DNA of 64,000 nt, from positions 4,239 through 68,238 of the forward strand of contig CBDUGP010000038.1 of NCBI GenBank assembly GCA_965366625.1. The letters are read 5' to 3'. Under the pieces are notes generated by a model. The model made no database searches. It worked only from the letters and a program-made list of their open reading frames with translations, and was not told where the DNA came from. Shown piece by piece: positions 20,482 to 64,000 of the stretch. The position numbers and the translations under genes were made by a program. Every line of letters starts with the position of its first letter. Position 1 is the first letter of the stretch. Origin of the DNA: an uncultured bacterium (GTDB lineage: Bacteria; Acidobacteriota; Thermoanaerobaculia; Multivoradales; J023).

Positions 20482-21620
20482 TGCGCGTCGGCTTCGACCT
20501 CTCCAAGGCCCACCATGCCGACGGAATCGGTACCTGGCAACGGGAAATGGGCCGGGCCTTGGCTGAACAGGTCGAACACCGCGGCGAGCCCGTTGCCCTC
20601 CAAGCTTTGTCTCTGACTGCTCCTTGGAGCCCTACTGCGCTAGGCCTGATTCAAAAAGCCATGGGCAGTCAGGCAAGCCTTTTTCAGTGGCCTGGGCTTT
20701 CGGCATCGACCGGCGGGTCCGGCATCGCACGATCCCAGGAGATTGCGGGATCCGAGGAGATCGTGATTTCCTCGGCCTGGGCCGTGCCCCCGGGTTTCGG
20801 CGGCACCTTATTTTTCGTCGTCCACGATTTGACCTTCTTGACCCATCCCCACTGCCATACCGAGGCGAATCGCTTGCATTGTTTAGCAGGCTGGCTGCGG
20901 GCGGCTTTGGTGGCCGAGGGTCGCTTTTTGGCCGTGTCCCAGGCCACCGCGGATGTGCTCTCGGGTTGGTTGCCGGCCGAGGGGCGAACGTCTGTGATCC
21001 ACAACGGGGTGAGCCCGTTTTGGCGTCCTTTGGAGCGAGACGAAGAGCGAGACGAGGTGGCCGGCATCCTCGACACTTCCTTCACCCTGCGGCCGGATGG
21101 TTTCGTCTTGAGTGTGGGCTCTTTCGAGCCGCGCAAGAACCTCGACGGCTTGTTGACCGCACATCAACGGCTGCCCGACGAGCTGCGTCAACGATTCCCG
21201 CTAGTGTTGGCCGGCAGCCAGGGCTGGAAGAACGAGCGACTTATGGCACGGTTGGATCGAGACCCTCAGGTCCGGGTCTTGGGTCGGGTCAGCGAGGGGG
21301 AGCTATTGGCTCTATATAACGGTGCGGCAGTCTTTGCGTATCCTTCCCTGGCCGAGGGTTTCGGTTTGCCGGCGGCGGAAGCCTTGGCCTGTGGGACTGC
21401 AGTTTTGGCGTCCAATTCCTCCTCCCTGCCCGAGGTGGTCGGAAAAGCGGCGGAAATGGTGGATCCCGAGCTGCCCGAGGCCATATCCTCAGCCCTTGCG
21501 AAGTTGCTCACGGATTCCCAAATGCGACAGGATCTGGCCGACCGGGGGCCCGCCCAAGCAGCACGGTTCTCTTGGCAAAAGTCGGCCGCAAAGCTCTTGG
21601 ATCTGATCCTCGATCCTTGA
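20481..21620 (+). CDS. Glycosyltransferase family 4 (GT-B, GT1 superfamily)
   Basis: 'SFEPRKNLDGLL', 'LVLAGSQGW', 'AAVFAYPSLAEGFGLPAAEALACGTAVLASNSSSLPEVVG' (E-X7-E region). Confidence 0.85.
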   Translation: MRVGFDLSKAHHADGIGTWQREMGRALAEQVEHRGEPVALQALSLTAPWSPTALGLIQKAMGSQASLFQWPGLSASTGGSGIARSQEIAGSEEIVISSAWAVPPGFGGTLFFVVHDLTFLTHPHCHTEANRLHCLAGWLRAALVAEGRFLAVSQATADVLSGWLPAEGRTSVIHNGVSPFWRPLERDEERDEVAGILDTSFTLRPDGFVLSVGSFEPRKNLDGLLTAHQRLPDELRQRFPLVLAGSQGWKNERLMARLDRDPQVRVLGRVSEGELLALYNGAAVFAYPSLAEGFGLPAAEALACGTAVLASNSSSLPEVVGKAAEMVDPELPEAISSALAKLLTDSQMRQDLADRGPAQAARFSWQKSAAKLLDLILDP

Positions 21621-21700
21621 CGGACCCGGAGAACCGAAGATCTCGACGAGCCTCCCGGCTCAAATCTATCCAGCCCCCGGGCCTTAGACGGAACCATCGG

Positions 21701-50009: not shown

Positions 50010-53000
50010 TCAAGGTGAACTCGCAGCTCCCACGGCCCCCGCCCCACCCTTTGCCGAATCTGCGGTCTGCGCCGTCTGAGCAGGCACCGGAATTTCGTCG
50101 GCGTCGGCGCCGAAGGGGCCATTCACCAGCAGCTCGAAGGGTTCGGAGCGGCGCACGGACGGATCGGTTTCGAACTCAAAGGCTCCAGGCCTCTGAAGGT
50201 CGTAAAGCACGATGGCTTCAGCTGCGTGGTTGGCGGCTGGATCGGCAGCCCGAGCCACGGCAACCGCTTGGTCTCTGGCGTTATCGTCGATTTTGTACTT
50301 TTGGTAGAGTTCGAAATGCTCCGTCGCTTGCTGCTCGTTACCCAGCTCCTTATGCAACAAATATAAGTTGTAGTGGGCTGAGACGTGCTCCGGATCGAGG
50401 CCGAGCACACGCTCGAACATCACTTTTGCTTTTCCGATCAGCTCCAGCTTTTGGGGCTGGCGCTGCTCGCCTCTCTCCTGCCGGGCCCGCTCGTAAAGGG
50501 TCTGCCCTAGCTCCGCCAACACCCGATAGTCCTGGGAGAAATCGAATCCGCGACGCCGGGTTTCGGCGTCGTCGAGGTTCAGAATGTTCTCGAAGTTGGC
50601 GATCGCCTCGTCTAGGAAGCCGTTCTGCTTGTTGACCAAACCGGTGAACCAGGCCACGGTCCATGCGGGAGAGGCGGGCGACCCTGAAATCGGGTGAGCT
50701 TTTGACGCCCGCTCCAATGCTTGGATGGCTTGGTCTTGCACGGTTCCTTGGGCAAAGTACACCCGAGCCAAGTTGAGCGCGCCTTCCGTCCGCCCGAGCT
50801 GCTCCACCTGGGTGAAGGCGTGCTCCGCTTGTTTCAGCTCACCTTTCGATTTGCCACCCTTGCGCAGGAGACCGATGCCGTAATCGTTCCAGCGCATCCA
50901 AGGGTCGGCGGTGGCCGGCAAGGGATTGTCCAACGGTCCGTGAGCGAAGCCTTCCACAGGGAACGTGATCCGATCCTCGGCCAAGGTCAAAATCGGCAGA
51001 TCGTTGACCCATTTCGGATTGTCTTCCACCAGAGCCATATAGGTCGTGTCGAATTTGCGGTATTGCAAACGGGCTTCTACCCGAACCGGCCCTACGACCC
51101 CTTCAGGAACGGAGAACTTGAAGTGCACCGAGTCCGCCGCACCGGGAGGAATCTGGTGGTTGTAGAGGGCGACGAAGATATCTTCGGCGTTCCTACGATC
51201 GATCCGGCGACCGTGACGATCCAGAACATAGGCGTTGACGAAATGGGACCATGGATCGACCCGATTCTGCTCCCCCAATCCCCCGATTCGGCCGATCGTA
51301 CGAACTCCGTCGGAAAATTCGGCGATCATGCGGACATCGAGCCAAACCTGATTCGAGTCGGCGGTCCCTTGGGTAAAGAGATGGCCCATCTTGGCGGTGC
51401 GAATCACGATGTCGAGCAGATAGTCCTGACCCGGCCGCAGCTCGGGCACCGACGGCCGAAGCGGAGCGATTGGGGTGGCGTCGATGGTGCCACCCTCTTT
51501 CAAGGCGAAAATGTCCAGACGCATCACGTCCCGATTGAACTCAGCTTGCCGTTGGTTGACCCATTCCGGCATGCCGAGCAGCTTGGGGATGGCGGTATTG
51601 GCACTCGCGAATTGATGGTCGTGGACTTTCAGGGAGCCGTCACCATCGAAATCTTGGGCGCCGAATTGCTCCGAAGGCCGTCGGGGCATGTGGCAGCCAT
51701 TGCAATTCTCTTGCGCCGCGGGTGGGTAATAGAAGCTGGTCACCCCGTGGCCGGACACGCCCGACAAATGGTAAGCATCGTAGTGATTCTGGCCCCGCAG
51801 CCATTTGTAATTGTTCAGCTCTTCAGGCAGGTGAACTTTGTGGCAGCTGCCGCAGAATTCCGGGGTCTTGTGCAGGGGTTTCAAGAATGTGCGCTTGTGG
51901 AATTCCGGCTTGGCCTTCACCAACTGTTGGTTGAGCCATTGCAAGGACTCCGACTCCGAGCCGGCGAAGGGATAGTGGGTGGGCTCCTCGATGGTGTAGT
52001 CGGAATTGCCACGCACCGAATTCACGTGGGTAATGGCGTGGCAAACGGTGCAGGTAATGCCGGCCTGGCCGGCCGGGTCGTTGACGTCGTCGAAATCCGG
52101 ATCGTCGAATTTGCCGCTGAAGAAAACCACTGGATCATGACAGCCGGCGCAAAAACGGGACGCTTGCACATTGCCGTCGCGAGCCTCAGCCATCCGACGT
52201 GTTCCATCCACGGAAAATTTATAGGGTGGGTTGTTGAACGAGCTGAAGCGGTGCATGGAAACCGCCCAGGTTTCATGGCTGTCCTCGTGGCATTTCTGGC
52301 AATACTGGTCGTTCATGAGAACTTCTTCGGGGATGAAATCACCGGTCGCCGTGCGGGATAACGACGGGAAGAAATATTGCTCCCCAGATTTTGGTCCCTC
52401 GACGTTCCATTGACGGGGATCCTGGGCCTGCCAAACCACCATGATCGCGGCGAAAACCGCTGCCACCACTGCCCATCGGCGTCCTACCTGCCATTTGATC
52501 TTCTTGCCGGCCAAGCGATGCAGCACAAATAGCCAGCCCGCGAGCAGAGGCGTGATCACATGTATCCAATATGCGATCGAGCGAGTGGTGGGATCCTTCA
52601 CCACGATGACCCCTTCGAGCCGGGTCAGCACCACCCCCGACACCAACAGCAAGATCACCATCACAAAGAGGGCGTAACCGGCCTTGACCGCCCGCCGATT
52701 ACGGCGGTCGTAGGTGTTGTACATGTGGATGAAGCCGAAGATCAGGGCGGGCAGCAGAATTAGGACGCCGAGCACCAAGTGGACCAAGAACATGTTCATG
52801 TAGAACCAGTTCTGAAACGTCTTGCCGGTGGTGCTTTCGAGGATCGATACCCCGATCAGGTAGGTCGAGTTAATGGCCAGGAGGGCAAAGAGCCCGAAAA
52901 CCAGGCTCAGGACCCGTTGCAGCTTGGGGCCGACCGCCTTCTTGTACCGTCTTTTCTTGGGAGCCGGCGTCTTGGTGGGTTCGGCGGGTTTCGACTGAGA

Positions 53001-53015
53001 ATTTTCGGTGCTCAT
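50010..53015 (-). CDS. Membrane-anchored multihaem c-type cytochrome (5 CxxCH) with C-terminal TPR repeats
   Basis: CQKCH, CAGCH, CTVCH, CGSCH, CNGCH; N-terminal 4 TM helices; C-terminal TPR-like 'AHYNLYLLHKELGNEQQATEHFELYQKY'. Confidence 0.8.
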   Translation of the reverse strand: MSTENSQSKPAEPTKTPAPKKRRYKKAVGPKLQRVLSLVFGLFALLAINSTYLIGVSILESTTGKTFQNWFYMNMFLVHLVLGVLILLPALIFGFIHMYNTYDRRNRRAVKAGYALFVMVILLLVSGVVLTRLEGVIVVKDPTTRSIAYWIHVITPLLAGWLFVLHRLAGKKIKWQVGRRWAVVAAVFAAIMVVWQAQDPRQWNVEGPKSGEQYFFPSLSRTATGDFIPEEVLMNDQYCQKCHEDSHETWAVSMHRFSSFNNPPYKFSVDGTRRMAEARDGNVQASRFCAGCHDPVVFFSGKFDDPDFDDVNDPAGQAGITCTVCHAITHVNSVRGNSDYTIEEPTHYPFAGSESESLQWLNQQLVKAKPEFHKRTFLKPLHKTPEFCGSCHKVHLPEELNNYKWLRGQNHYDAYHLSGVSGHGVTSFYYPPAAQENCNGCHMPRRPSEQFGAQDFDGDGSLKVHDHQFASANTAIPKLLGMPEWVNQRQAEFNRDVMRLDIFALKEGGTIDATPIAPLRPSVPELRPGQDYLLDIVIRTAKMGHLFTQGTADSNQVWLDVRMIAEFSDGVRTIGRIGGLGEQNRVDPWSHFVNAYVLDRHGRRIDRRNAEDIFVALYNHQIPPGAADSVHFKFSVPEGVVGPVRVEARLQYRKFDTTYMALVEDNPKWVNDLPILTLAEDRITFPVEGFAHGPLDNPLPATADPWMRWNDYGIGLLRKGGKSKGELKQAEHAFTQVEQLGRTEGALNLARVYFAQGTVQDQAIQALERASKAHPISGSPASPAWTVAWFTGLVNKQNGFLDEAIANFENILNLDDAETRRRGFDFSQDYRVLAELGQTLYERARQERGEQRQPQKLELIGKAKVMFERVLGLDPEHVSAHYNLYLLHKELGNEQQATEHFELYQKYKIDDNARDQAVAVARAADPAANHAAEAIVLYDLQRPGAFEFETDPSVRRSEPFELLVNGPFGADADEIPVPAQTAQTADSAKGGAGAVGAASSP

Positions 53016-53184: not shown

Positions 53185-54591
53185 CTACCGCGGGCCAGGA
53201 CCTACGGGCACCGTTGCCGCGGGATCGCCCAATATGATGTGGGATCGGGCGTCGCAGTAGGCGGACCAAAGCTCGAGAAGCTCCAAGGATTCGAAATCGC
53301 CGTCGCCCGCTCCCAGGCTTTCGGCCACCAGACGGGTGGCGAGTTCGGCGTGCCGTTGGGCAAAGGCTTCCATGGCCAAACCCACCGGAAGCCCCTTGAG
53401 CAGCTGGCTCAGAACCTCGCCAAAGCAATGGGCTTGACCGTCCTCAAAACCACCGAAGCTGTGGCTCGGCATGGCCCGGTCGACGTGGGCGATCACCGCG
53501 CCGGCTCCGCCCGCCGGGTGGCTCAACAGCCGCTGGGGCAGACGGGCCACGAACGGATCGTTCGCGAGCAGCCTGCGCTCCCCTCGCCGGTCCTTGCCGG
53601 GAGCGCCGAAGGTGTCCAATCTGGGAGTGCCGGCCGTATGGCAACCGAATAGGACGAAAATCCTGCCCGCCAAAGAGGCGTTGTCGGGTACATCGGAGGC
53701 GGCAAAGTAGTGTTTGGAATAGGCGGGCCCGGTGCCCGGCCAATCCGCACAGACGATCGCCCCTTGGCAAGGGCGAAGGCGGGCGTTCTCGGGTTTGAAG
53801 AGGGCGGCATGGCCAATGGTCATCACCACCTGTGAGCTGCCGTCGGTGAGGCTGCGGCTCAACCTCTCTTTGGTGGCGGCCCGGCCATCGAAGCGCCGAG
53901 AGCGAATGCCTTGATGGTTGAGAGCCCGTTCCAACGGGTCGACGAGGGCGCGTCTAGCGGTGTCCGTGGCGGGATCGAGCCCTTGGTTTTCAGGGCCATG
54001 TCCGACCGAAAAGAGATCGAGATCGTAGGTCCGGCGAGTCGCCCGCTTCTCCGCCTCGATCAGCCCTTGGGCATAACGGGCGTAAGCCTCCGGCGAGGGC
54101 AATTCCAACCGGCCGGTGGCGTATTGCAGGTCGAGATCGAATTGAAATCCATGGGGAATCTCTTCGGGGGAGCCCACCAACAACAAGTAGTAGGGCACCG
54201 TCGAGGGAACCACCGGCCCGGGTCCGGCGCGCAGTCGCGACAAAAAGGTGCCCGGCCCTTCCCGGGGCACGTACGTCAGGCGACGGAATAGTGGACCGAC
54301 CTGCTCGCGGCGCCAGTCCAGAAGCGGCTCCAAAGCCTCGACGATCGCTGGGTCGACGGAGCGATGAAAGACGGCTCCCCAGCCGGCCTGGCGCAAATCC
54401 GTGGGGTCGAGGTCGGCCCTCAGTCTGCGACTGCGGGCGATCACGGACTCGAGCCCACGCGGCGCCAGGTCGGGATAGAACGGCCGGCCGGTCTCGGCAT
54501 CCATGCCGAGAAACCGCAGGGCGATTCTGTCCTGCCCCGTTTGCAAACGGGGCACCTGACGGACGGCGGGCTCGAGGTCCTTAGTTTTCAT
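53185..54591 (-). CDS. Hypothetical protein; possible clan-CD-like cysteine peptidase (candidate His/Cys dyad)
   Basis: 'VVMTIGHAALF' ... 'RIFVLFGCHTAGT' His-then-Cys arrangement ~56 aa apart, 'YYLLLVGSPEEIP' block; no firm family assignment. Confidence 0.4.
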   Translation of the reverse strand: MKTKDLEPAVRQVPRLQTGQDRIALRFLGMDAETGRPFYPDLAPRGLESVIARSRRLRADLDPTDLRQAGWGAVFHRSVDPAIVEALEPLLDWRREQVGPLFRRLTYVPREGPGTFLSRLRAGPGPVVPSTVPYYLLLVGSPEEIPHGFQFDLDLQYATGRLELPSPEAYARYAQGLIEAEKRATRRTYDLDLFSVGHGPENQGLDPATDTARRALVDPLERALNHQGIRSRRFDGRAATKERLSRSLTDGSSQVVMTIGHAALFKPENARLRPCQGAIVCADWPGTGPAYSKHYFAASDVPDNASLAGRIFVLFGCHTAGTPRLDTFGAPGKDRRGERRLLANDPFVARLPQRLLSHPAGGAGAVIAHVDRAMPSHSFGGFEDGQAHCFGEVLSQLLKGLPVGLAMEAFAQRHAELATRLVAESLGAGDGDFESLELLELWSAYCDARSHIILGDPAATVPVGPGPR

Positions 54592-54609
54592 CGCATGTAG
54601 GGCGGGTTC

Positions 54610-54786
54610 TCAGCCGTCCTCGGTTTCGTCCAAGGGCTCGTCGGCTCCTTCCAACGGCAGGCCTCCCCCCGCCTTGGCGGTATCGTCGGTCTGGGTTGGA
54701 TCACCCGGCGGATCGTCGCCCGCCCGCCAGGGCCAGAACGGCTTCGGTCCCGGATTGGATCCTCGGTGTTCGAGCTGTAAAGACAT
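54610..54786 (-). CDS. Small acidic protein (58 aa), hypothetical
   Basis: ATG preceded by AAAGGAGA RBS at optimal spacing; 'MSLQLEHRGSNPGPKPFWPWRAGDDPP...EPLDETEDG'. Confidence 0.35.
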   Translation of the reverse strand: MSLQLEHRGSNPGPKPFWPWRAGDDPPGDPTQTDDTAKAGGGLPLEGADEPLDETEDG

Positions 54787-54880
54787 CTTGATCTCCTTTC
54801 CCCTCAGTCTCCCGAATTGCGGCCGCGGCAAAACGGGAAATTTGATTGGCTGCGCTTCGATGTCTGAACCTGACTCAAGT

Positions 54881-57772
54881 TCAGTGACGAAACGGCGGCC
54901 CACTAATCGATTTCGAAAAGGATAGAAACCGATCGCTGGAAAAGGTTCGTGCCGTGGAGGACTTTCTCGTAATCTCTCGTGGGCCACGACGAGCGGCGTT
55001 GAGATCACTGCTTTCCAGGACTTCGTTCCGGTGCATTGAGCCGTCGCCGATCAAGACGAAACCGGCCCAATACGCGGGGTCAGCCCAGGTGCCGCCGTCC
55101 AACATGGCCAGCTGGGCGGCGCGCAAGGCCTCGGCAGGCGCAAGCTCGAGGTCGATCAGCTGCCGATATAGCTCGATCATCAGCTCAGCGGTCGGCGCAT
55201 CGGCCACCTGCCAAAGGCTTGCCACCACCGACGCAGCACCCGCTTTGAGAAATCCCCGGGGCAAGGCCATCGTGCCCTCCCCCGCCAGAATCTCACCCAG
55301 GGCCGTGTCGCAGCCCGCCAGGCTGACCAAATCCGCCGACAAAGTCAGTCGATCCAAGTCCCCCAGGCGCAAGGATCCGTCGATCCGGCGACCCTTGGGA
55401 TCGACCCTCGACAGCTCGATGGCGGCGAGGTCCGGCGCTTCCGGATCGACCTGGGCGTGGGTGCCGAAATGCACGAATCGACTGGCGGCCAGGTGACCGC
55501 CCAAGACCCACTCCTTAGAAGCCGCGAGTCCGGTGCGCGGCTGGAAACCCCGCGCTCGGGCGATCGCGTTGGCTTCTACGCCGGAAGCCTCTAATCTCGG
55601 CAACTCTATGCTCCAAAAGTCTGACCTTGGTGAGCTGTCGGGGTTCGATCCGGCACTTCGCCGATCTCCGCGAGTGGCTCCCCCTCCTGCCTGAGGCCGG
55701 GGGCTGCGGGAGTCTTGGAAACCGTAGATGGGATCGGCCACCACCGTCAGCAAATTTCCTTGGCGGGACGCTCGCTCACGGGCTCGGCTGCGGATGGCCG
55801 CCACCGTGGACACGGAATAGGAAAGGCTGATCGGATGGTCGCGCAGCATTGGATGCCCTTCTTTTCCCGGTTTCGGCAGCACCGCAAAGGGCACCGTGGC
55901 CAATGCACCCTCGACCACAATCGATAGGGGGCGCCCCGGCCGCAAGCGGTCGACTACCGGGCCCAGCAGCGCTTCGGACAGGGCTCGGGCTTCGGCGTCG
56001 GAGCGGGAACGAGCCGCAGGACCTTGGGCCAAGTACCGGAGCAGGGCTCCGGCCGCAGCTTCGAGATCCTCGCCAGGGGGCAAGCCGTCGTGCAATTGGA
56101 AATCATCCCGATCGACCGACCAAAGCAAGCTGCGCTCGGCGCCGGGCCAATAGACCAACATCAATACGTCGGGTCCCAATAGCTCCTGCGTGGCTTTCAG
56201 GTCTAGGCTCGGTGCCCCTTCCGCCCCGGCAACCCGACGCATTTCCGCTTCCAGGCCCGCCAAAGTCAGCCTTAGCTCCTTCGCTCGGGTCAGCGCGACC
56301 GTCGGGCTGACGCCCATGCCTATGCTGTCGTCCATGTTCGCGTCGCCGGAGGCCGAGCCCTCTCGGTCGAGAGGCCCCAATTCGAGGATCTTCAGAGCTG
56401 CGTCCAACTCGGCACGAATGCCGTCCAGCCGGGCGCTGAACTCGGGTCCAGCGGCAGAGCGGATGGCATCGATCGGCCAGATCAAGTGGTCTAGAAGACT
56501 GCGGGCGCGGGCCAGCTCGGCCACCTCGAACGCTTCCCGTGCCCGTCCGCGGGCGGCGAGGGAAAGTACGAATAGGTCGAGCATGTGTCGTCGGCGAGCG
56601 AAGAACGGTAACAACAACTCCCCTTGGCCCGAGGTCCTCAGGGCCTCAAAAGTGCCCAAGAACCATTCCATCGACACGTCCATCTGCGGCCACAGGCCCA
56701 GGGCCTCGAAGGCCTGGGCTTGCACGTGCAGGTTGTGCAAGCTCAGGTTTGGATCCCCTAGACCCGCCTGTCTGGCGATCCGGGCCGACCGGCGGCTGGT
56801 TCGTATGGCCGACTCAGGATTTCCGAGTCGGAGCCACGCGTCCGCTTGGTTGCCGATCGCGTGGGCCCGATTGAGGGGATTTTGGGCGTCCTTCGCCGCG
56901 CGTCCGAAGAACTCCAGGGCCGCCTCGGCTCGTCCAGCTGCCAGGTGAAGGATTCCCAAGGCGTCCAGCCCGGGTACTTCGGAAAGGGAGGCCGAACGGC
57001 GCATTTCCATGGCTTCTTCGAGCACTTCGGAAGCGGATTCCAGCTTGCCTTGCTCGGTGAGTAATCTGCCGCTCCAGGTGAGGCAAATGGAAATGGCCAA
57101 CCGGCCGCTATTTGACGATCCCAGAGCCCGTAACCGATCACAGGCTTGGTCCAAGGTCTGGCGCGCCGCGCGCCATCGACCCATGCGCAGGTAGAGAATG
57201 CCCACATTCAAATGGGAATTGGCCCACTCCGAGACCTCACCGAGATGCCGCCACAACAGCCGTGCCCCCGCCAGGTGCTCCAAGGCCTGACGCAGATGCT
57301 GTCGTCGGCTTTCGAGCAGGGCCAGATCATTGAGCAGACCGGCCACCGACCGAGCGGAACCGACCCGGAAGGCGGATTCCAGGGCTTGCAAATAAGCGTG
57401 GCTCGCCGCGGACGGATCGCGTTCGGCCCAAAGGTCGCCCAGCAGGCCGAGCAGAGTTGCGCGCCCGCATCCGAGCTGGTCGCGTTCGAGCTGCTCGGCC
57501 ACCGACGAGATATCTCTTCCCAGCTTTTTGAGAGTGGCCGCCGGCACCGCCGCCTTCGCCGATCGAACGGCCTCTATCCGTTCCAGCAGCGGGGTCACCC
57601 GTGGGTCCTCAGGCTGCCCCGCACAGGGCTGATCGGGGGCATCCAGAAGCATCAAGACTTCCGGCGCCACCGCTTCGGGACTGACGGGAATCGGCTCTCG
57701 GGTATCGCAGCCCCAAAGAGCGAGGAGCGCGATCCAAAGGGCTGACCTGGCGACTGCCTGTGGATCGCCCAT
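54881..57772 (-). CDS. Lipoprotein with N-terminal TPR array and C-terminal CHAT (caspase-HetF-associated with TPRs) protease domain
   Basis: Lipobox 'LLALWGC'; many TPR-like helical repeats; CHAT dyad 'SRFVHFGTHAQVD' and 'LVSLAGCDTALG'. Confidence 0.85.
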   Translation of the reverse strand: MGDPQAVARSALWIALLALWGCDTREPIPVSPEAVAPEVLMLLDAPDQPCAGQPEDPRVTPLLERIEAVRSAKAAVPAATLKKLGRDISSVAEQLERDQLGCGRATLLGLLGDLWAERDPSAASHAYLQALESAFRVGSARSVAGLLNDLALLESRRQHLRQALEHLAGARLLWRHLGEVSEWANSHLNVGILYLRMGRWRAARQTLDQACDRLRALGSSNSGRLAISICLTWSGRLLTEQGKLESASEVLEEAMEMRRSASLSEVPGLDALGILHLAAGRAEAALEFFGRAAKDAQNPLNRAHAIGNQADAWLRLGNPESAIRTSRRSARIARQAGLGDPNLSLHNLHVQAQAFEALGLWPQMDVSMEWFLGTFEALRTSGQGELLLPFFARRRHMLDLFVLSLAARGRAREAFEVAELARARSLLDHLIWPIDAIRSAAGPEFSARLDGIRAELDAALKILELGPLDREGSASGDANMDDSIGMGVSPTVALTRAKELRLTLAGLEAEMRRVAGAEGAPSLDLKATQELLGPDVLMLVYWPGAERSLLWSVDRDDFQLHDGLPPGEDLEAAAGALLRYLAQGPAARSRSDAEARALSEALLGPVVDRLRPGRPLSIVVEGALATVPFAVLPKPGKEGHPMLRDHPISLSYSVSTVAAIRSRARERASRQGNLLTVVADPIYGFQDSRSPRPQAGGGATRGDRRSAGSNPDSSPRSDFWSIELPRLEASGVEANAIARARGFQPRTGLAASKEWVLGGHLAASRFVHFGTHAQVDPEAPDLAAIELSRVDPKGRRIDGSLRLGDLDRLTLSADLVSLAGCDTALGEILAGEGTMALPRGFLKAGAASVVASLWQVADAPTAELMIELYRQLIDLELAPAEALRAAQLAMLDGGTWADPAYWAGFVLIGDGSMHRNEVLESSDLNAARRGPREITRKSSTARTFSSDRFLSFSKSISGPPFRH

Positions 57773-57781
57773 GGCGGCCGA

Positions 57782-58627
57782 TTAATCCTGAAAGCGGACG
57801 TCGAAGGAATAGGCGGCGAAGATCGAGCCGCTTTCCGGATCCCGGAGCTCAACCGTCGCTTGGCCGGGTTGCAGGTGGCCCACCGATACCATCAGCATGT
57901 AATGGCCTTCCTCTTGGAGCTTTACGGACGTCTGTGGCAGCGCATCATCACCTTGGGTCAAAGTGGCCTCGGCCACCGCCGGTAAATCGAAACCCAGATC
58001 CAAGCGGGAAGGTGGATTGAGGGTCAGGACCACCGACGAGATTTGACGGCTCACGTGCAGAGTCGATGTTTGCCCAGTGGACGAACGTTTCGGACCCGCC
58101 GAGGCACCGAGGGATAGCGACTCGGATTCGAGGTTGCCGGACATCGCGGGTGCCTTCGGCTCCATCAGCGCGATCGTCAGGCCGGAGGCGAGCACCATGG
58201 AGGCTGCCAAAGAGATAAGCGGATTGCGCGCAACGAAGGACCGGAAGCGAGAGGGCCATGGTCGCAGATTGGGCTCGCCGGTGGCGAGTGCCGCGGTTTG
58301 TAAGGTTTGTGCGGTTTGTGGCCGTGAGATCTCCGGCTCGCCCGTCGATTCCGCGGCGGTGGCTGCTAGAAAGCGCTGCCAGGCGGCCGACTGCTGCTCG
58401 GCGTCGACCCCGGCAGCGGCCTCGAGTTCCTCCGGGCGGTCGACGTCCAAAAGGGCCTGAGCGAGGTCCGGGTTCGCCACCAAGGCCCTGCGGGCACTCT
58501 CGGCGGCCTCACCGTCGAGCCGGCCTTGACCCAAAGCCATCAACGTGGCGAAGTCGAGTTCGGGCTCGTCTAGGGTCTCGGTGGCCGAGCGCAGGGCTTC
58601 TTCCAGCTCCCGTTCGTCGAGGCTCAT
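57782..58627 (-). CDS. Putative membrane anti-sigma factor
   Basis: Position immediately after ECF sigma gene with ATGA overlap; N-terminal cytoplasmic helices, single TM 'LISLAASMVLASGLTIALM', C-terminal periplasmic domain; no ZAS motif. Confidence 0.55.
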   Translation of the reverse strand: MSLDERELEEALRSATETLDEPELDFATLMALGQGRLDGEAAESARRALVANPDLAQALLDVDRPEELEAAAGVDAEQQSAAWQRFLAATAAESTGEPEISRPQTAQTLQTAALATGEPNLRPWPSRFRSFVARNPLISLAASMVLASGLTIALMEPKAPAMSGNLESESLSLGASAGPKRSSTGQTSTLHVSRQISSVVLTLNPPSRLDLGFDLPAVAEATLTQGDDALPQTSVKLQEEGHYMLMVSVGHLQPGQATVELRDPESGSIFAAYSFDVRFQD

Positions 58628-59226
58628 GGGTTGCCGTCCTTTCCGACCTCAACCTCGGACCAAGGTTCTTTCAACCTTTCCTCGAGCTGTTTTTTGGCCT
58701 GAAAGATCTGCGATTTTACGGTGTTGACCTCAATGCCCAAGAGACGAGCGATCTCCCGGTATTTCAATCCATGCACAATCCGCAGGTGCAGGGCATGCCT
58801 GCGGCCTTCGGGCAATTGGCGAATTGCCGCTTGCAGCTGGTGTCGCCGCTCGTCTTCGAGCAATCGATCTAAGGCGGAGTCCCCCGCGGGCCGGGCTTCA
58901 GCCGCTTCCGCGGTATCTTCCTCCGACGCCAGGGACAACGGTCGCACCTGACGTTTGAGGGTCCGGGAGGCTCGCAAATGATTCAGCCACACATTGCCGG
59001 CGATCGAAAACATCCAAGTGGCGTCCGACGCCTCTCGACGAAAGCGATCAAACCCGCGATAGGCGTTGAGCAGGGTTTCCTGCACGAGATCCTCGCTCTC
59101 GGATTCCGAGCACCCTCGGTTGAGAAAGAAACCCAAAAGCGGCCCATAGAAAGTGTCAAAGAGAGCTCGAAAAGCAAGTTGATCAGCCCCCGGGAGCTCC
59201 TCCCGCAAGGCGGAGTCCTTCCCCAT
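58624..59226 (-). CDS. ECF-subfamily RNA polymerase sigma-70 factor
   Basis: Region 2 'DLVQETLLNAYRGFDRF', region 4 'LPEGRRHALHLRIVHGLKYREIARLLGIEVNTVKSQIFQAKKQL'; start at MGKDS. Confidence 0.85.
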   Translation of the reverse strand: MGKDSALREELPGADQLAFRALFDTFYGPLLGFFLNRGCSESESEDLVQETLLNAYRGFDRFRREASDATWMFSIAGNVWLNHLRASRTLKRQVRPLSLASEEDTAEAAEARPAGDSALDRLLEDERRHQLQAAIRQLPEGRRHALHLRIVHGLKYREIARLLGIEVNTVKSQIFQAKKQLEERLKEPWSEVEVGKDGNP

Positions 59227-59345
59227 ATCCCGTCTCCAATCCAAAACTCTGGATTCGGTTTGGTATTCAGGGGTCAGAATAGCAGAAAAGTTTTTCCATC
59301 GTGCCCCTTGGAACGATTGGCTGAAGCACCTCAACCCTGCACCTG

Positions 59346-61319
59346 CTAGACCCTGCGGCGCAGGTGAATGGCTCGGCGAACGCAGGTCCAGTCGTCGCGG
59401 TGGCGTAAGGCGGGCTGGATTCTGCCTAGGGCGAGCAGACTCTCCAAACGGTTGGCACCTCGATTAGCCGCTTCTCGATGGGCCACGGCAACATTCTCAG
59501 GCTCATGGATTTCGGTGGTGATCCAAGAAAAGTCCGTCGGGCTGGTGGTGGCAAACACCTTGAGGAATCCCAAACCCTGGGGCGGTTCCCCAGGGTGGGA
59601 AGGCGGCGGCAGCTCTTCAGCGGGCGGGAAGATCAGCTCGAGCTCGTCGTAGGTTTGTTTGCCAATACTCAACTGAAGCCCCGGCAGCAACAGCTCGGCG
59701 CCACCGGGCTCCGGAAAAATCTGGGTGACGTGGTCGCTGAGGCCGAAATCGAGCACATACACGTAGAGGCCGTCCGGATAGGAATGCTCCAGGTCGATGG
59801 CCAGAAGATCGCCTTCTAGAAACTCGGTGGAAAAACCGTCCTTGGACGGGGCCCGCTCCCAGACTCCGTCGCCCTTGCCTGTGAGCAACTGCAGGTCGAG
59901 GAGACCGCCCAAGCGGCTGTGGGGATCGCAATTCTCGAGCTGGAGACCGAGCCGGGCACGGGCACGGCGTTCGAGGCGCTCCAAGCATCCGGCCCCGTGG
60001 GATTCTGCCGGTAGAGCAAGCCTTGCGCCGAGGTGGTCCGTGGCCTGTCCGTCAGGCCAAAGGTGCAGGGATTCGGGCGGAATCGGCTCGTCGATCCCCA
60101 ACTCCCGTAAATACGGTGACGAGCGAACCTGCGTAAGGAGGCGGCTGACTTCGGCCTCGGGCTTTGCAAGCAAATCGCAGTGGATCGCCACCGGCAACCG
60201 TCGGTCTCCGTAGGCGGCTTCGACTTCCAGCGCCCACAGGGTCCCGTGGTCGATCTCTGGGTCACTCGGAACGGCCATGTCTACGGCAGCGGCTTCGTCG
60301 ATCTGCAGCAGGCTTTCGAACGGGCCCACTTCCGAGAGTTCGAAGGGGCCCCAGCCGGGCGTCGCTGCCAAATCTGTGGTCTCTGTGGGCAACAGGCGCC
60401 AGCGGGAACCAGGGCTCAGGCCGAGGGCTGCTCCGCCGGAGAGCACCCAGCGATCGGCGGACCGGCGGCGGGCCTTCAAATGCCGGGCGAAGGGCAACCG
60501 CTCCAGGCCGAAAACCCGTCGCTCGCCGTCGCCGAGCAACATCGGCCATTGCTCGATGCCCTCGGCGGCCAAGGTCGCGGCTGCCCGCTCAAAGACCTGG
60601 CGCGCGCCCATGCCGCTCTGCATTTGCTCCAGGGCCTGGACCAGCGCCCAAGTCCACTCACCGAAAAAACTGCCGGCCAGTTCTCGCTCACCCGCCAATT
60701 GATCGTCTCGGCAGGCCGCAAAGATCAACCGTCGACGGGCCACGGCATTTTTAAATAACGACCTTTGAGGATTTGCTGAGCGAAGGGCTCGACGACTGGC
60801 GGTGGGCCCGGGAGGCGGTAGACGGCGGATTCGCGTTGCGGCATGGCTGCGGTGAGCGTGTCCGGAGTGACAACAATCGAGGTTGATCGTCACGAACGCG
60901 CCGCGGCGCTCCAAACCCGCCAGCCGTTGGGCGATTTCGTGATCGGAGATGTCGCCGCTGAAACCGACACCGTCCCGGCGACCGTCGTAGGGCACCCAGG
61001 TTTCGTCCAAGCCGTCGGCTTCGTCGCCGTGGACGTCGAGAATTTGGGAGCCGTGACCGCTGAAGTGGATCACCACTTGATCGCCGTCCCCGGCTCGTGC
61101 CACTAGCTCGTCCAGGGACCTGAGGATCGAGTCACGGGTGGCGTCGGCGTCCACCAAGATCCGAAGATGCCGGGCTTCGAAGCCAAATTTGCCCCGCAGC
61201 ACCCGGCCCAGGGCCCGGACGTCGTTGGCGGGCCCGAGCAAGCGGGCCCGCTCGCCGATTCGTGGATATTCTCCGATGCCGATCAACAATCCGAATCGGC
61301 GCGGGCTGCCCGCACTCAT
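59346..61319 (-). CDS. Caspase (peptidase C14) domain protein with C-terminal DUF4384-like beta-sandwich region
   Basis: 'FGLLIGIGEY', His 'VIHFSGHGS', Cys 'INLDCCHSGH'; C-terminal 'YPDGLYVYVLDFGLSDHVTQIFP'. Confidence 0.8.
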   Translation of the reverse strand: MSAGSPRRFGLLIGIGEYPRIGERARLLGPANDVRALGRVLRGKFGFEARHLRILVDADATRDSILRSLDELVARAGDGDQVVIHFSGHGSQILDVHGDEADGLDETWVPYDGRRDGVGFSGDISDHEIAQRLAGLERRGAFVTINLDCCHSGHAHRSHAATRIRRLPPPGPTASRRALRSANPQRSLFKNAVARRRLIFAACRDDQLAGERELAGSFFGEWTWALVQALEQMQSGMGARQVFERAAATLAAEGIEQWPMLLGDGERRVFGLERLPFARHLKARRRSADRWVLSGGAALGLSPGSRWRLLPTETTDLAATPGWGPFELSEVGPFESLLQIDEAAAVDMAVPSDPEIDHGTLWALEVEAAYGDRRLPVAIHCDLLAKPEAEVSRLLTQVRSSPYLRELGIDEPIPPESLHLWPDGQATDHLGARLALPAESHGAGCLERLERRARARLGLQLENCDPHSRLGGLLDLQLLTGKGDGVWERAPSKDGFSTEFLEGDLLAIDLEHSYPDGLYVYVLDFGLSDHVTQIFPEPGGAELLLPGLQLSIGKQTYDELELIFPPAEELPPPSHPGEPPQGLGFLKVFATTSPTDFSWITTEIHEPENVAVAHREAANRGANRLESLLALGRIQPALRHRDDWTCVRRAIHLRRRV

Positions 61320-62500
61320 GGCGACGAGGAGCTGTCCTCTTCCGGACGCACGAAATCGCCGACCTTAAGACCCTTGCAACCTTCTGTGATCACCGCCGTC
61401 GCCATGAGTGGGTCCACGGTGGTGACTTTCAGGCTGCCGATGACCTCTTGACTAAAACCCAGGCTCTTGCCGCTCTCCGGGTCGATCATCTCCTTGCCCT
61501 TGCGCACCGCCCGGAAGACCTGCCCTTTAGACACGCCGCGGTTCTCACCACCGTTCAAGATCACCAAATCACCCGTGACGTCCACCACCGCCCCACGCCA
61601 GGGCCTGACCTTCAAGTCGTTGGCGATGGCGTAAGAAGCCTTGTTGAGACAAGCGGCCAGGGCGTAATTGACCGGGCTGATGTCCTGTTGACCAAAGAAC
61701 GGTAGCCGAATCGATCGATTCCTGGAGGTAGCGCGAAATGTGTCGGCAAAAGAGACCTCAGCGGTTTCCGTATCCACCACCCGGAGGGATAAAGCGACCT
61801 CGGCAATCGACTTGCCGACGCCTGGAATTCCGCGGGTCTTTTTCTTTGGGGTCCATTCGTTGATGCTGGTAAAGAGGATGTAGTCGGCGCCCAAATTGCG
61901 GCCGATTTGCGCTGCACTTTGGATGGTCACCCGTTCGCTTTCACCGAAATCCTGCTCCGCCAGGACCGTTTCGAGCTGCTTGCGCTCAATCACGTCGAAA
62001 CGGTTGGTATTGAAAATACTCGAAGTCAACATATCTTCGATGGCTTGCAGCGGCGCAACCGAGGTGCGATAGACCATTTGCCAGAAGCCCAGGCTATGGC
62101 TGGTCTCCGTGGAGTGCATTCCGATCTTGTCGATCACTTTCCAAACCGCGATGCGGCTGCGGTTGCCGGTGAAGTCCGTGAATTCCAGGGTCATCCAATC
62201 TTCATCGGAATTTCTTTCGATTGGTTTGAGCAAGTGGTAACGATGGCCTTGCTCATCTTTGACATAACCCTCCCACTTGCCCGAATCCTGGAACGGTGTC
62301 TTCTTGGCGGCGGCCTCAGCGGCCTTCTTCTTTTTACTTTTGGGCAACGCTTCTGCAGCCGGGGCAGTGATCGTGCCCAAAACCAAAGCGACGGCTAGGC
62401 CGACCGCAGTCCAACGGCCGGTCCAACGGCTACGTCGGCCAAAGGACGATCCGAGTTTGATCGGGCTCAACATGAGTTTGCACATCTTTCTCTCCTCCAT
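61316..62500 (-). CDS. CsgG/LpoB-fold lipoprotein (curli-secretion-like / TolB-N-like)
   Basis: 'DVIERKQLETVLAEQDFGESERV...IGRNLGADYILFTSINEW' signature; signal peptide; ATGA overlap with caspase gene. Confidence 0.55.
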   Translation of the reverse strand: MEERKMCKLMLSPIKLGSSFGRRSRWTGRWTAVGLAVALVLGTITAPAAEALPKSKKKKAAEAAAKKTPFQDSGKWEGYVKDEQGHRYHLLKPIERNSDEDWMTLEFTDFTGNRSRIAVWKVIDKIGMHSTETSHSLGFWQMVYRTSVAPLQAIEDMLTSSIFNTNRFDVIERKQLETVLAEQDFGESERVTIQSAAQIGRNLGADYILFTSINEWTPKKKTRGIPGVGKSIAEVALSLRVVDTETAEVSFADTFRATSRNRSIRLPFFGQQDISPVNYALAACLNKASYAIANDLKVRPWRGAVVDVTGDLVILNGGENRGVSKGQVFRAVRKGKEMIDPESGKSLGFSQEVIGSLKVTTVDPLMATAVITEGCKGLKVGDFVRPEEDSSSSP

Positions 62501-62579
62501 TCAGAGCTTCGTCCCCTCGCCGAACCGGCGGGGATCCATTAGGGCCACGGGAGGGTAGAAACGTCTTCTCTAGGAAGGT

Positions 62580-63926
62580 TCATGGCGAGCCGCCTGAAAC
62601 CGAGGCGGATACCTCGCTCAGGCGAGCCGTCATCAGCCGATAGCGGTATCTGTCGGGATTCGAGCTGCTGAAGAGGAGGTCAAAGGCCTCGTCACCGTCG
62701 AAGCTACCGGCAAACTCCAGCCAGATCCGTCGGCGGGCGCCCCGAGCGAGTGTCTGCTCCACCACTCCCCGGCCGATCGGGCCTCTGTTGGTGGCTTCCA
62801 AGCGGAAGGTCTGGCCGCCCATGATCAGCTTGGTGGCTTGGGGGTCGTAACCCACGTTGAGAGATTGGGACCCTTCGTTGTAAAGCTCGATATGCCAGCG
62901 CAGCCGTCGATTGCCCAGCCGGTCGATGGCGACCAATTTGGCCCGCAGACCCGGGAGGGTGGTTTCGATTTCGTGCTGGCCTTCCGCCAGCTCGAAGGAA
63001 GCGATCGAAACTTCCTCGGTCTTCGAATAACTTTCCGGGTAGTCGGGCAGCTTAATTTGTAGGTTCTGGGCTGCGAGGGCGCGTCCGCGAAGGGTGAGTT
63101 CAAAGACCGAGGCCCCATTGCGCGGCGATTCCGTTTCGAGCCACAGATCATGACCCAACCCCGGAAGAAGCTCAGCTCCGGCCCCGTGTCCGATCACCCG
63201 ATATTGTCGACCGATCACATCGACCAAGGCTGTGCTTCCGGGCAACAAACCGACGGTCCGCGGGCGCCGACCCTGGTTGAGCAAAAGGATATTGAACCGC
63301 ATGCGATCGTCGGTGAAGAGGTCGATACTGTGCAAACGGGCGGAAAAATCTCCGGAAACCGTCTTGAGGGCGAGATCCATGGGTAGGCGCAAGGCTCCCG
63401 GCGGCGCCCCGGCGGCCGGTTTCCGAGGTGCCGGCCATTTCAAATTGCCGACTCGGGCGGGTTCGAAGGTCGAGCTCTTGGGCACCGCCGACTGCAACCA
63501 AAGGGTCAGAGCTCCGGCGTCGGCAAAGGGAGCCTCAAAATCTAGTTGGGAAACAGCCCGGGCGCCCGCCAACAGCTCGGCACGGAATCCTTCACGTTTT
63601 ACGTCCGCCTTGGGCTGGGCGGCGAGCAGATCGTAGCGGCGGCCTTTTGAATCCGAGACGTAGATCTTTGGATAGTCCAACCCCCACAACAAATCGTCAG
63701 CCGTGCGATTCCACAAACTCAACCGCCAGCGCATTCGGCGTGAAGGTAAGGCCTCAATCGCGACGATTTCTCCCTTCAATCCCTTGAGACTAGAGTCGAT
63801 AGGCACAGCTTTCGCGAGCAGATTCGAGTCGTTGGATTTGGCTATTGCCTTACCGGCCAAGCCATCGATTTTCAGCTCCGCGTTTTGGAATCGCACACCG
63901 CTCGACGCCTTGGTCGCCAGGCGCAA
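62580..63926 (-). CDS. Hypothetical secreted protein with three internal ~100-aa repeat modules
   Basis: Recurrent 'R(M/L)RW.(L/I).L.N...' blocks: 'RRMRWRLSLWNRTADDL', 'RMRFNILLLNQGRRP', 'RRLRWHIELYNEGSQS'; first gene of the minus-strand cluster. Confidence 0.45.
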   Translation of the reverse strand: MRLATKASSGVRFQNAELKIDGLAGKAIAKSNDSNLLAKAVPIDSSLKGLKGEIVAIEALPSRRMRWRLSLWNRTADDLLWGLDYPKIYVSDSKGRRYDLLAAQPKADVKREGFRAELLAGARAVSQLDFEAPFADAGALTLWLQSAVPKSSTFEPARVGNLKWPAPRKPAAGAPPGALRLPMDLALKTVSGDFSARLHSIDLFTDDRMRFNILLLNQGRRPRTVGLLPGSTALVDVIGRQYRVIGHGAGAELLPGLGHDLWLETESPRNGASVFELTLRGRALAAQNLQIKLPDYPESYSKTEEVSIASFELAEGQHEIETTLPGLRAKLVAIDRLGNRRLRWHIELYNEGSQSLNVGYDPQATKLIMGGQTFRLEATNRGPIGRGVVEQTLARGARRRIWLEFAGSFDGDEAFDLLFSSSNPDRYRYRLMTARLSEVSASVSGGSP

Positions 63927-64000
63927 GGTAAAGCTGGTGGCTCCGGGTTTTGGTGGGCCGAAGTCGAACCAGGGTTCTGCCCGGAGGCCCCGTCGGAGAC

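Follow-up and report, generated by a model that had tools for sequence, protein, structure and literature searches.

Sigma switches controlled by proteases have recently come to light in bacterial immunity. In Myxococcus xanthus, DdvS, a sigma factor of the extracytoplasmic function (ECF) type, is paired with an anti-sigma factor, DdvA, that carries a fused periplasmic TPR-CHAT moiety proposed to serve as its own site-1 protease (PMC11506125, PMC6061681); the CHAT-dependent loss of the DdvA periplasmic domain and the ensuing cleavage by RseP have been proposed, not demonstrated, and the fused form has been reported only in Myxococcota and one Comamonas (PMC11506125). In craspase, the TPR-CHAT protease Csx29 cleaves Csx30, a protein that binds the ECF sigma factor RpoE (PMC10028731; bioRxiv 10.1101/2022.08.17.504292), and in a type III-B/CBASS locus of Haliangium, SAVED-CHAT activates the C14 protease "PCaspase", which cleaves a sigma factor (bioRxiv 10.1101/2023.06.23.546230). 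CHAT proteins also belong, together with a carboxypeptidase and a subtilase, to the genomic context of ECF54, where no anti-sigma factor is found and the CHAT proteins are predicted to regulate by proteolysis (PMC8999054); the main text of the ECF re-classification paper makes no mention of CHAT, and the Aravind group has noted ECF sigma genes beside EACC2-caspase systems. Here we analyze a gene cluster that combines an ECF sigma/anti-sigma pair and a separately encoded TPR-CHAT protease with three further proteases of clan CD. The cluster lies on the minus strand of a 64,000-nt stretch of DNA from an uncultured soil acidobacterium (contig CBDUGP010000038.1; the whole stretch is hereafter called the window) and extends past the window end. 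We tentatively read it as a conserved two-part signalling and execution system, in which a split DdvA-/craspase-like switch is coupled to an arm of caspase-clan proteases, and give this reading somewhat less than an even chance.

All the genes that an earlier note on this DNA had placed on the minus strand were found where it put them, and the junctions that it described were borne out as well: 4-nt ATGA overlaps join the CsgG-like gene to the C14 gene and the sigma gene to the anti-sigma gene, the C14 and sigma genes are separated by 119 nt (given as 120), and the anti-sigma and TPR-CHAT genes by 9 nt. Each of the motifs quoted there (DCCHSG, LAGCDT, TIGHAAL and LFGCHTAG) was found as well. 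As the predicted core of the cluster, the data favour a functional switch of three genes, made up of the sigma factor, the transmembrane (TM) anti-sigma factor and the periplasmic TPR-CHAT protein.

The ECF sigma factor (200 aa; 58624..59226) was recognized as such by the Pfam profiles Sigma70_r2 and r4_2, as the earlier note had supposed, and passed the NCBIfam superfamily model TIGR02937; its closest solved relatives are of the AlgU/RpoE type. The note had reasoned that membership of the pair in a well-characterized ECF group whose partners are unrelated to proteases would speak against a proteolytic link. When the sigma factor was compared with the curated equivalog and subfamily models, no cut-off was reached (the best equivalog, PRK12513, scored 98 bits against a cut-off of 206), so that, by these models, the protein does not fall into a well-characterized group.

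The 281-aa product of the next gene (57782..58627) has no Pfam match of its own, a PDB search with the single sequence returned only noise, and a word-indexed homolog search retrieved only the protein itself; even a full phmmer search of 1.84 billion representatives produced only 19 matches. The profile of the family, however, matches solved anti-sigma domains at E values from 3e-5 to 1.5e-4, namely, those of RslA (3hug_B, E 3e-5), the N-terminal domain of DdvA (8rlz_A, E 1e-4) and ChrR. Several homologs contain the Pfam domain zf-HC2, and the HxxxCxxC signature is kept in 13 of 17 aligned homologs. Judged from this profile evidence, the protein is a predicted member of the ZAS-type single-pass anti-sigma family, as the earlier note had it. 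Topology prediction, together with the sequences of the family, yields a cytoplasmic anti-sigma domain, one TM helix (aa 137-155) and a beta-rich periplasmic domain of about 125 aa, which in the relatives ends in a PGxYxLxL motif. This periplasmic domain is small, fast-evolving and locus-specific, properties that would suit a substrate or docking domain dedicated to one partner. Homology of this domain with the repeat modules of the CHAT-repeat protein described below was considered and ruled out (hhalign probability 0.3%). In another assembly of the same population (L001:2-547; loci and contigs used for comparison are cited by L numbers), a Clp_N-like sequence is fused in frame to the anti-sigma C-terminal domain at the contig start, which is probably an assembly chimera.

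The third gene encodes a 963-aa TPR-CHAT protein (54881..57772) with the Pfam domains CHAT (E 1.9e-55) and TPR_12. It starts with a signal peptide and a lipobox (LALWGC), followed by a TPR superhelix; the C-terminal part is the CHAT domain, which carries the putative catalytic dyad H772/C821. The protein is predicted to be an exported periplasmic lipoprotein, so that the lipoprotein assignment of the earlier note stands. The signal peptide is conserved, usually with the lipobox, in the sigma-linked homologs, and among the metagenome loci, 60 of the 68 complete TPR-CHAT homologs have an N-terminal hydrophobic segment. PDB sequence searches with the single sequence and with the profile retrieved only TPR proteins; the AlphaFold2 model (pLDDT 81.5) gave as its top Foldseek matches craspase Csx29 (8eey_B, E 2e-13), DdvA (8rw5 and 8rot, E 6e-12 to 4e-11, 15% identity) and separase. 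H772 and C821 are invariant in 30 homologs, and so are the motifs that surround them, which argues for selection on catalysis. This invariance bears on the possibility that the TPR-CHAT protein is a non-proteolytic, RseB-like periplasmic partner that shields or exposes the anti-sigma domain, with catalysis irrelevant to signalling. TPR arrays are protein-binding scaffolds, and the TPR-CHAT part of DdvA sterically blocks RseP and has been described as having an incomplete active site (PMC11506125); against this, retention of the dyad and its motifs in 30 of 30 homologs makes a purely steric role most unlikely.

The earlier note allowed for a random juxtaposition of the genes in question. We surveyed the neighbourhoods from two sides, using the best 80 species-level loci anchored on the C25-like protease gene at the 3' end of the cluster (annotated with profile hidden Markov models built from the window proteins) and the 80 nearest soil metagenome loci anchored on TPR-CHAT. 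The co-directional order sigma, anti-sigma, TPR-CHAT, small open reading frame (ORF), C25-like recurs in distant relatives (40-46% identity) with unrelated flanks. In L006, these five genes are followed by a C14 gene; L007 has the sigma/anti-sigma/TPR-CHAT triad directly followed by CHAT-SIR2, nSTAND1 and C25-like genes; and in L008, TPR-CHAT, the small ORF and the C25-like gene are accompanied by further CHAT and C14 genes. Because the arrangement is kept across many species and contexts, the view that the genes of the cluster are unrelated and adjoin each other by chance is refuted by the neighbourhood analysis and can be given next to no credence.

The triad also exists on its own, as confirmed for two Pfam-annotated examples (L171 and L172), and its gene order varies. 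In the TPR-CHAT-anchored survey, a sigma gene lies directly downstream of TPR-CHAT in 19 of the 60 testable loci, and sigma and anti-sigma genes lie upstream of it in 5 of 48. The sigma genes in the two positions fall apart sharply when scored against the window sigma factor: 20 of the 21 genes located 5' of TPR-CHAT score 60-146 bits, compared with no more than 27 bits for all 20 genes located 3' of it, so that two ECF lineages are independently tied to exported TPR-CHAT proteins, each with its own fixed gene order. In the second of these triads, TPR-CHAT comes first, then sigma and anti-sigma; it includes a sigma factor from an ECF lineage unrelated to that of the window and a single-pass anti-sigma factor of 280-330 aa; it was found in L104, L107, L108, L110, L118, L120, L124, L130, L131, L135, L136, L139, L143, L152-L154, L168, L170 and L171.

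In the split-switch reading that we favour, the ZAS-family anti-sigma factor would hold the ECF sigma factor at the inner membrane, and the separately encoded TPR-CHAT lipoprotein would be placed in the periplasm beside the anti-sigma periplasmic domain; that the two share a compartment is inferred from their signal sequences. The TPR part would read an envelope-side signal, whereupon the CHAT domain would cut the periplasmic linker or domain of the anti-sigma factor in trans, in a site-1-like manner, and an RseP-type protease would complete the cleavage by intramembrane proteolysis, setting the sigma factor free. Of the conceivable mechanisms, this is the most economical; the same scheme has been proposed for the fused DdvA (PMC11506125) and demonstrated in the cytoplasm for craspase (bioRxiv 10.1101/2022.08.17.504292). 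Cleavage of the anti-sigma factor by CHAT, which the earlier note had suggested, is plausible and consistent with the predicted topology and with the invariant dyad.

Alternatively, the sigma/anti-sigma pair might be activated conventionally, through a DegS/Prc-type site-1 protease, a redox-sensitive ZAS domain or partner switching, with the TPR-CHAT protein as an output or co-factor; in the output version, it would be a co-expressed periplasmic protease that degrades foreign or damaged envelope proteins. The redox-sensitive HxxxCxxC signature of most anti-sigma homologs fits such a scheme, and so does the variable gene order of the wider family, in which TPR-CHAT precedes sigma in the 19 loci mentioned above. 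Mutants of the DdvA CHAT dyad, furthermore, had no phenotype in M. xanthus under the conditions tested (PMC11506125). The operon is apparently also under a housekeeping-type promoter: the 119-nt gap in front of the sigma gene contains TTTTCTGCTATTCTG (59275..59289, minus strand), an extended -10 element (TGnTATTCT) that precedes the sigma start codon by about 50 nt, occurs once in the window and sits in a block conserved with L004, a relative at 73% identity; a conserved block and TAnnnT elements are found upstream of the sigma genes in other loci, too. Conventional activation is nevertheless fairly unlikely in our estimate. TPR-CHAT is the constant neighbour of each of two unrelated ECF lineages, and such tight, recurrent linkage of three genes is typical of switch regulators rather than of a single member of a regulon; the small, locus-specific periplasmic domain of the anti-sigma factor, with its 19 phmmer matches, likewise argues for a dedicated partner.

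Beyond the triad, the cluster includes what would be the execution arm of the split-switch reading: a C25-like protease with a small acidic partner, a C14 protease, a membrane CHAT-repeat protein and a secreted CsgG-like protein. The earlier note had suspected a third protease in the 468-aa protein encoded at 53185..54591, and by its fold this protein is indeed a clan-CD enzyme. It gives no match to PF01364 at E ≤ 0.01, and a PDB search with its profile found nothing; its AlphaFold model (mean pLDDT 88), in contrast, shows the gingipain catalytic-domain fold in a fold search. H261 and C317 are invariant in an alignment of 30 sequences of the family, many of whose hundreds of homologs have a precomputed Peptidase_C25 match; PF01364 is annotated in many homologs at 37-47% identity, and one of these is named "C25 family cysteine peptidase" by NCBI. 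The N-terminus carries a conserved FNGIDGxTGxY motif and no signal peptide or hydrophobic stretch, and the protein stops right after the catalytic domain. The fold, the invariant dyad and the lack of a signal peptide together characterize it as a predicted cytoplasmic gingipain-like (peptidase C25-like) protease. The family is large, with at least 512 stretches confirmed by tblastn (one genome per species) in Acidobacteriota, Chloroflexota, Cyanobacteria, Myxococcota, Planctomycetota and other phyla.

Between TPR-CHAT and the C25-like gene, the 58-aa ORF with a strong ribosome-binding site that was noticed earlier is present (54610..54786; GGAAAGGAG). It encodes an acidic, Pro/Gly-rich protein and is called as a gene in independent assemblies. 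In the comparison with L004, all 14 substitutions in the last 31 codons (54610-54702) are synonymous, which indicates that the ORF is translated and that purifying selection acts strongly on the C-terminal half of its product. Other loci have Pro/Asp/Gly-rich ORFs of 47-65 aa in this position, also preceded by a ribosome-binding site. Given that these are disordered Pro/Asp-rich peptides of 47-65 aa without a Pfam match, identification of the small ORF with a protease-activated effector of the Pepco/EACC1 type (PMC12642450) was ruled out. A motif P-[ILFV]-[EDVAQ]-G occurs in 7 of the 15 counterparts of the small ORF (L006-L080) compared with 0.56 expected from shuffles, the motif having been picked after the data were seen; a protease may recognize it or dock there. 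Several loci have an extra lipoprotein gene, encoding about 130-150 aa, that separates the small ORF from the C25-like gene (L017:9562-9951, L026:2955-3395, L045:3894-4349, L059:9532-9972 and L080:9551-9949); its product has a conserved ...ERWxWWNYTFLxG...VVHLEI... core and no Pfam match.

On the other side of the triad, the predicted cytoplasmic C14 caspase-family protease (657 aa; 59346..61319) is matched by Peptidase_C14 (PF00656, 84.7 bits against a cut-off of 21.4, E 1e-23) and by the PADLOC "caspase" model (E 7.5e-20), and its putative catalytic residues H89 (SGHG) and C150 (DCCHSG) are invariant in 7 homologs. It has a conserved C-terminal region of about 390 aa and no TM segment or signal peptide. 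Of the earlier description "caspase C14 + DUF4384-like", the first part holds; the DUF4384 match in the tail stays below threshold (E 0.014-0.034 in the window protein, at best 3.6e-4 in two of the 7 homologs). A similar correction applies to the adjacent "CsgG/LpoB-like lipoprotein" (61316..62500; 394 aa, or 389 aa if translated from the ATG at 62485). The CsgG domain is confirmed (PF03783, 73.4 bits against a cut-off of 20.8, E 2e-20, profile positions 38-203 of 210), along with matches to LpoB (E 5e-6) and a weak match to FlgT_C in the C-terminal 95 aa, and the lipoprotein assignment finds no support: a lipobox Cys is missing from the AxA-type signal peptides of this protein and its relatives, which points to secretion, with a predicted periplasmic location. 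The csgA/B/E/F partners were sought and no curli genes were found in the cluster; lacking both a lipobox and these partners, the protein is not a curli component. The CsgG-like gene recurs beside a C14 or CHAT gene in L004, L014, L026, L030, L046 and L080.

The gene at the window end, taken earlier for a complete "repeat-module protein" at 62580-63926, proved to be the 3' 1.4 kb of a longer one, with the frame open to base 64000 (62580..64000). Contig L089 has no mismatches to the window over 5844 shared nt and holds the full gene (L089:1000-4473), which encodes 1157 aa with an N-terminal CHAT domain (Pfam E 2e-30, aa 131-393), a TM segment spanning roughly aa 432-452 and five repeats, each approximately 135-140 aa long; the window contains repeats 3-5 and part of repeat 2, and the 5' 2 kb lie beyond its end. 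The repeats, 19-28% identical and aligned in register, were recovered by motif and with MAFFT; self-BLAST found nothing. The predicted topology puts the protease domain in the cytoplasm and the repeats in the periplasm, and in L004 and L046, too, a CHAT domain is fused to a homologous repeat region. Because the full gene carries the N-terminal CHAT domain, the "three caspase-clan proteases" of the earlier note become four clan-CD proteases, in a cluster that reaches beyond the window. The CHAT-repeat gene is preceded by some 460 nt of intergenic sequence (L089:540-1000), which contains approximately three tandem copies of a unit of about 65 nt with GGTTGGCACCTTTT(C/T) motifs; these copies may serve as a regulatory array or may simply form a repeat element; a partial ORF of 178 aa lies further upstream.

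How tightly the arm belongs to the switch can be gauged from the C25-anchored loci. The triad is present in 17 of the 80; a CHAT ORF in 61 (and in 40 of the 46 loci of at least 15 kb); an nSTAND-like NTPase in 35; CHAT-SIR2 in 22; C14 in 10; and a CsgG-like gene in 7. Outside Acidobacteriota, the C25-like cassette consists of CHAT-SIR2_2, nSTAND1 with WD40, and the C25-like gene. These numbers leave room for an island of two or three independent modules, namely, the ECF/TPR-CHAT triad, the C25-like gene with the small protein, and the CHAT-repeat/CsgG/C14 group, which would be co-located as defence genes often are and not directly coupled biochemically. Each module is found without the others: the triad stands alone in the two examples named above and in metagenome loci, and the C25-like gene occurs with STAND/CHAT-SIR2 genes and without a sigma gene in 35 of the 80 loci. 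The position of C14/CsgG shifts, too, from upstream of sigma in the window to downstream of the C25-like gene in L006 and L046, and the window contains other conflict-type genes (TIR-SLOG, GT4-conflict). Nevertheless, the triad adjoins the C25-like gene in the 17 species-level loci, where the gaps of 0.2-0.8 kb always hold a small Pro/Asp-rich ORF; the window genes are co-directional and translationally coupled; and what comes after the C25-like gene is in every case either C14 or a CHAT protease of 570-950 aa, often followed by a CsgG-like gene, which speaks for a defined set. We therefore consider an uncoupled island distinctly unlikely.

In the split-switch reading, the arm would act as effectors or as a proteolytic relay, the likeliest setting being conflict, abortive infection or cell death. 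This role is suggested by the presence of the C25-like family elsewhere in STAND/CHAT-SIR2 cassettes, by the CHAT-to-PCaspase precedent and by proteolysis-gated effectors, which are common in defence (PMC12642450). A bolder version, unlikely in our judgement, takes the cluster for an "extrinsic-pathway-like" protease relay across the envelope, with sensing, sigma release, a three-enzyme cascade, and growth arrest or death. The separase-like periplasmic lipoprotein would sense a phage or competitor protein or envelope damage, cut the anti-sigma factor and release the ECF sigma factor; the latter would license a cascade of the gingipain-like protease, C14 and the membrane CHAT receptor-protease that leads to growth arrest or death. 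The gingipain-like enzyme would be checked by the small acidic peptide or would process it, and as an executioner, it would be interchangeable between ECF-based envelope sensors and STAND/NLR-based cytoplasmic sensors.

Several observations weigh against the coupled switch and arm. The anti-sigma factor of the window itself lacks the zinc ligands, with A, N and L at the HxxxCxxC positions. The promoter of the sigma operon looks like a housekeeping-type extended -10 by resemblance only, and no ECF autoregulatory promoter is recognizable. Upstream of the sigma genes, inspection by eye revealed no elements other than extended -10 ones of the sigma-70-like type, close relatives dominated the result when gapped k-mers were enumerated in front of 21 sigma genes, and a scan of the cluster for terminator and promoter consensus sequences was uninformative, with fewer matches than in shuffles, all inside coding sequence. 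Likewise, none of the protease genes in the window turned out to be preceded by an ECF-type motif, so that nothing here links the effector genes to the regulon of the sigma factor. The C25-like gene occurs in none of the 80 nearest TPR-CHAT metagenome loci, which implies that switch and arm are separable. The TPR-CHAT protein, being periplasmic by prediction, cannot act directly on the cytoplasmic C25-like, C14 and small proteins or on the protease domain of the CHAT-repeat protein. A PADLOC scan of all eight products detected no known defence system beyond the generic "caspase" model, and the flanks within the window consist of housekeeping-type genes. In addition, what the analysis shows is confined to gene content, folds, intact catalytic dyads, predicted topology and conserved linkage; what each protease cuts, which signal is read, which genes the sigma factor controls and what the system does for the cell are points that we infer.

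Some further features were noticed in the course of the analysis. The PADLOC scan also reported a CARF match of the sigma factor, which we judged spurious. In seven loci of a sub-lineage in which the C25-like gene is convergent with the sigma operon, each locus has a single GTAAC[GA]..-N10-16-[CG]CGCC motif, which invariably precedes the C25-like gene by 100-150 nt (L019:2123, L024:8235, L033:9834, L035:225, L040:525, L071:9820 and L087:2943); this candidate for an ECF-type promoter is absent from the window and from the sigma upstream regions. The gene that directly follows the cluster on the same strand (50010-53015, minus strand) encodes a membrane protein of 1001 aa that has multihaem cytochrome c motifs and, at its C-terminus, TPRs; it is probably outside the system because this synteny is seen in close relatives only. 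Farther away, at 37 kb from the cluster, an 854-aa protein (13760-16324, minus strand) combines TIR_2 with SLOG cluster2 (LD_cluster2), an architecture of the conflict/NAD-signalling type, and the C-terminal part of a 909-aa protein (21572-24301, plus strand) matches Glycos_transf_1 and the "GT4-conflict" glycosyltransferase family.

Should the split model be true, CHAT control of ECF sigma factors would be a widespread form of envelope signalling in Acidobacteriota and other soil bacteria, evolved at least twice in different ECF lineages, and not a myxobacterial or CRISPR-linked curiosity. With the protease and its presumed substrate encoded as separate polypeptides, a DdvA-type mechanism also becomes directly testable. 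The cytoplasmic gingipain-like proteases form a large uncharacterized family that is wired either to NLR-like STAND/CHAT-SIR2 systems or to the ECF switch, and are candidates for a new component, effector or relay, of the pathways of immunity and cell death in bacteria; with its four clan-CD proteases, the cluster would also lend itself well to testing whether bacteria run caspase-like cascades of several steps.

The earlier note did not recognize the combination as a described system. As a concept, it has precedents in DdvS/DdvA, in the craspase set of Csx29, Csx30 and RpoE, and in SAVED-CHAT/PCaspase; the searchable literature yielded no description of the split triad of sigma factor, anti-sigma factor and TPR-CHAT lipoprotein, nor of the cytoplasmic C25-like family. 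A close parallel is with DdvS/DdvA. In both, the ECF sigma gene adjoins the anti-sigma gene and is co-transcribed with it, as the 4-nt overlap indicates for the window; the anti-sigma factor has a single TM helix, and for the family of the window protein the profile points to a ZAS-type cytoplasmic domain (the 8rlz match); a separase-type TPR-CHAT with a His-Cys dyad is periplasmic, as it is predicted to be here; and the proposed logic is site-1 cleavage by CHAT and then by RseP. Unlike in DdvA, the anti-sigma factor and TPR-CHAT of the window are products of two genes 9 nt apart, the TPR-CHAT protein having its own signal peptide and lipobox and the anti-sigma factor its own small periplasmic beta domain and no zinc ligands; there are no adjacent CBASS or CRISPR genes, and C25-like, C14 and CHAT-repeat proteases are attached. 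The split form, furthermore, occurs in Acidobacteriota and soil metagenomes rather than in Myxococcota. Because the defining fusion of anti-sigma factor and TPR-CHAT is absent, the cluster does not belong to the DdvA family.

With the type III-E craspase, the cluster shares the linkage of a TPR-CHAT protease to an ECF sigma factor and its inhibitor, and Csx29 is the best structural match; DUF4384 is present in some Csx30 C-terminal domains, and the tail of the C14 protein has the weak sub-threshold match mentioned above. Craspase is nonetheless excluded because there is no Cas7-11: neither a Cas7-11/gRAMP gene nor a CRISPR array is present in the cluster or its flanks, where all neighbouring products are accounted for. 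The craspase protease, moreover, is cytoplasmic and RNA-activated, in contrast to the predicted periplasmic one here, and the inhibitor in the window is a ZAS-family transmembrane anti-sigma factor, not Csx30/Csx31. The SAVED-CHAT/PCaspase locus resembles the cluster in that it brings together genes for a CHAT protease, for C14, and for a sigma factor and the inhibitor of the latter, and provides a precedent for the activation of one clan-CD protease by another; the present cluster differs in that it has no SAVED or cyclic-oligonucleotide sensor, and comprises four proteases of three families, with putative cleavage relationships.

Other comparisons concern single components. In its RpoE/AlgU-like ECF sigma factor, single-pass anti-sigma factor and co-encoded periplasmic partner, the triad parallels Sigma-E/RseA/RseB with DegS/RseP, the difference being that the partner is a caspase-clan protease rather than RseB and that the cluster has no DegS-type PDZ protease; the presence of a transmembrane anti-sigma factor sets it apart from ECF54. 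The C25-like protein is only 13% identical to the Porphyromonas gingipains Kgp and RgpB (MEROPS C25) and, unlike these, lacks a signal peptide, a pro-domain, an Ig-like domain and a type IX secretion system (T9SS) C-terminal domain, and is always found beside CHAT proteases. Being predicted cytoplasmic, devoid of the accessory domains and below the Pfam threshold, it is not a classical gingipain. Its relatives sit in NLR-like STAND + CHAT/SIR2 cassettes (PMC7159879, PMC8195603, PMC13581612) in Chloroflexota, Cyanobacteria, Myxococcota and other phyla, whereas the window cluster has neither a STAND NTPase nor SIR2, and the ECF/anti-sigma/TPR-CHAT triad occupies the place of the sensor. Altogether, the cluster looks like a split and expanded version of the recently described protease-controlled sigma switches of bacterial immunity; what is new compared with these is that the architecture is split, how broadly this form is distributed, and that C25-like, C14 and CHAT-repeat genes are attached to it.

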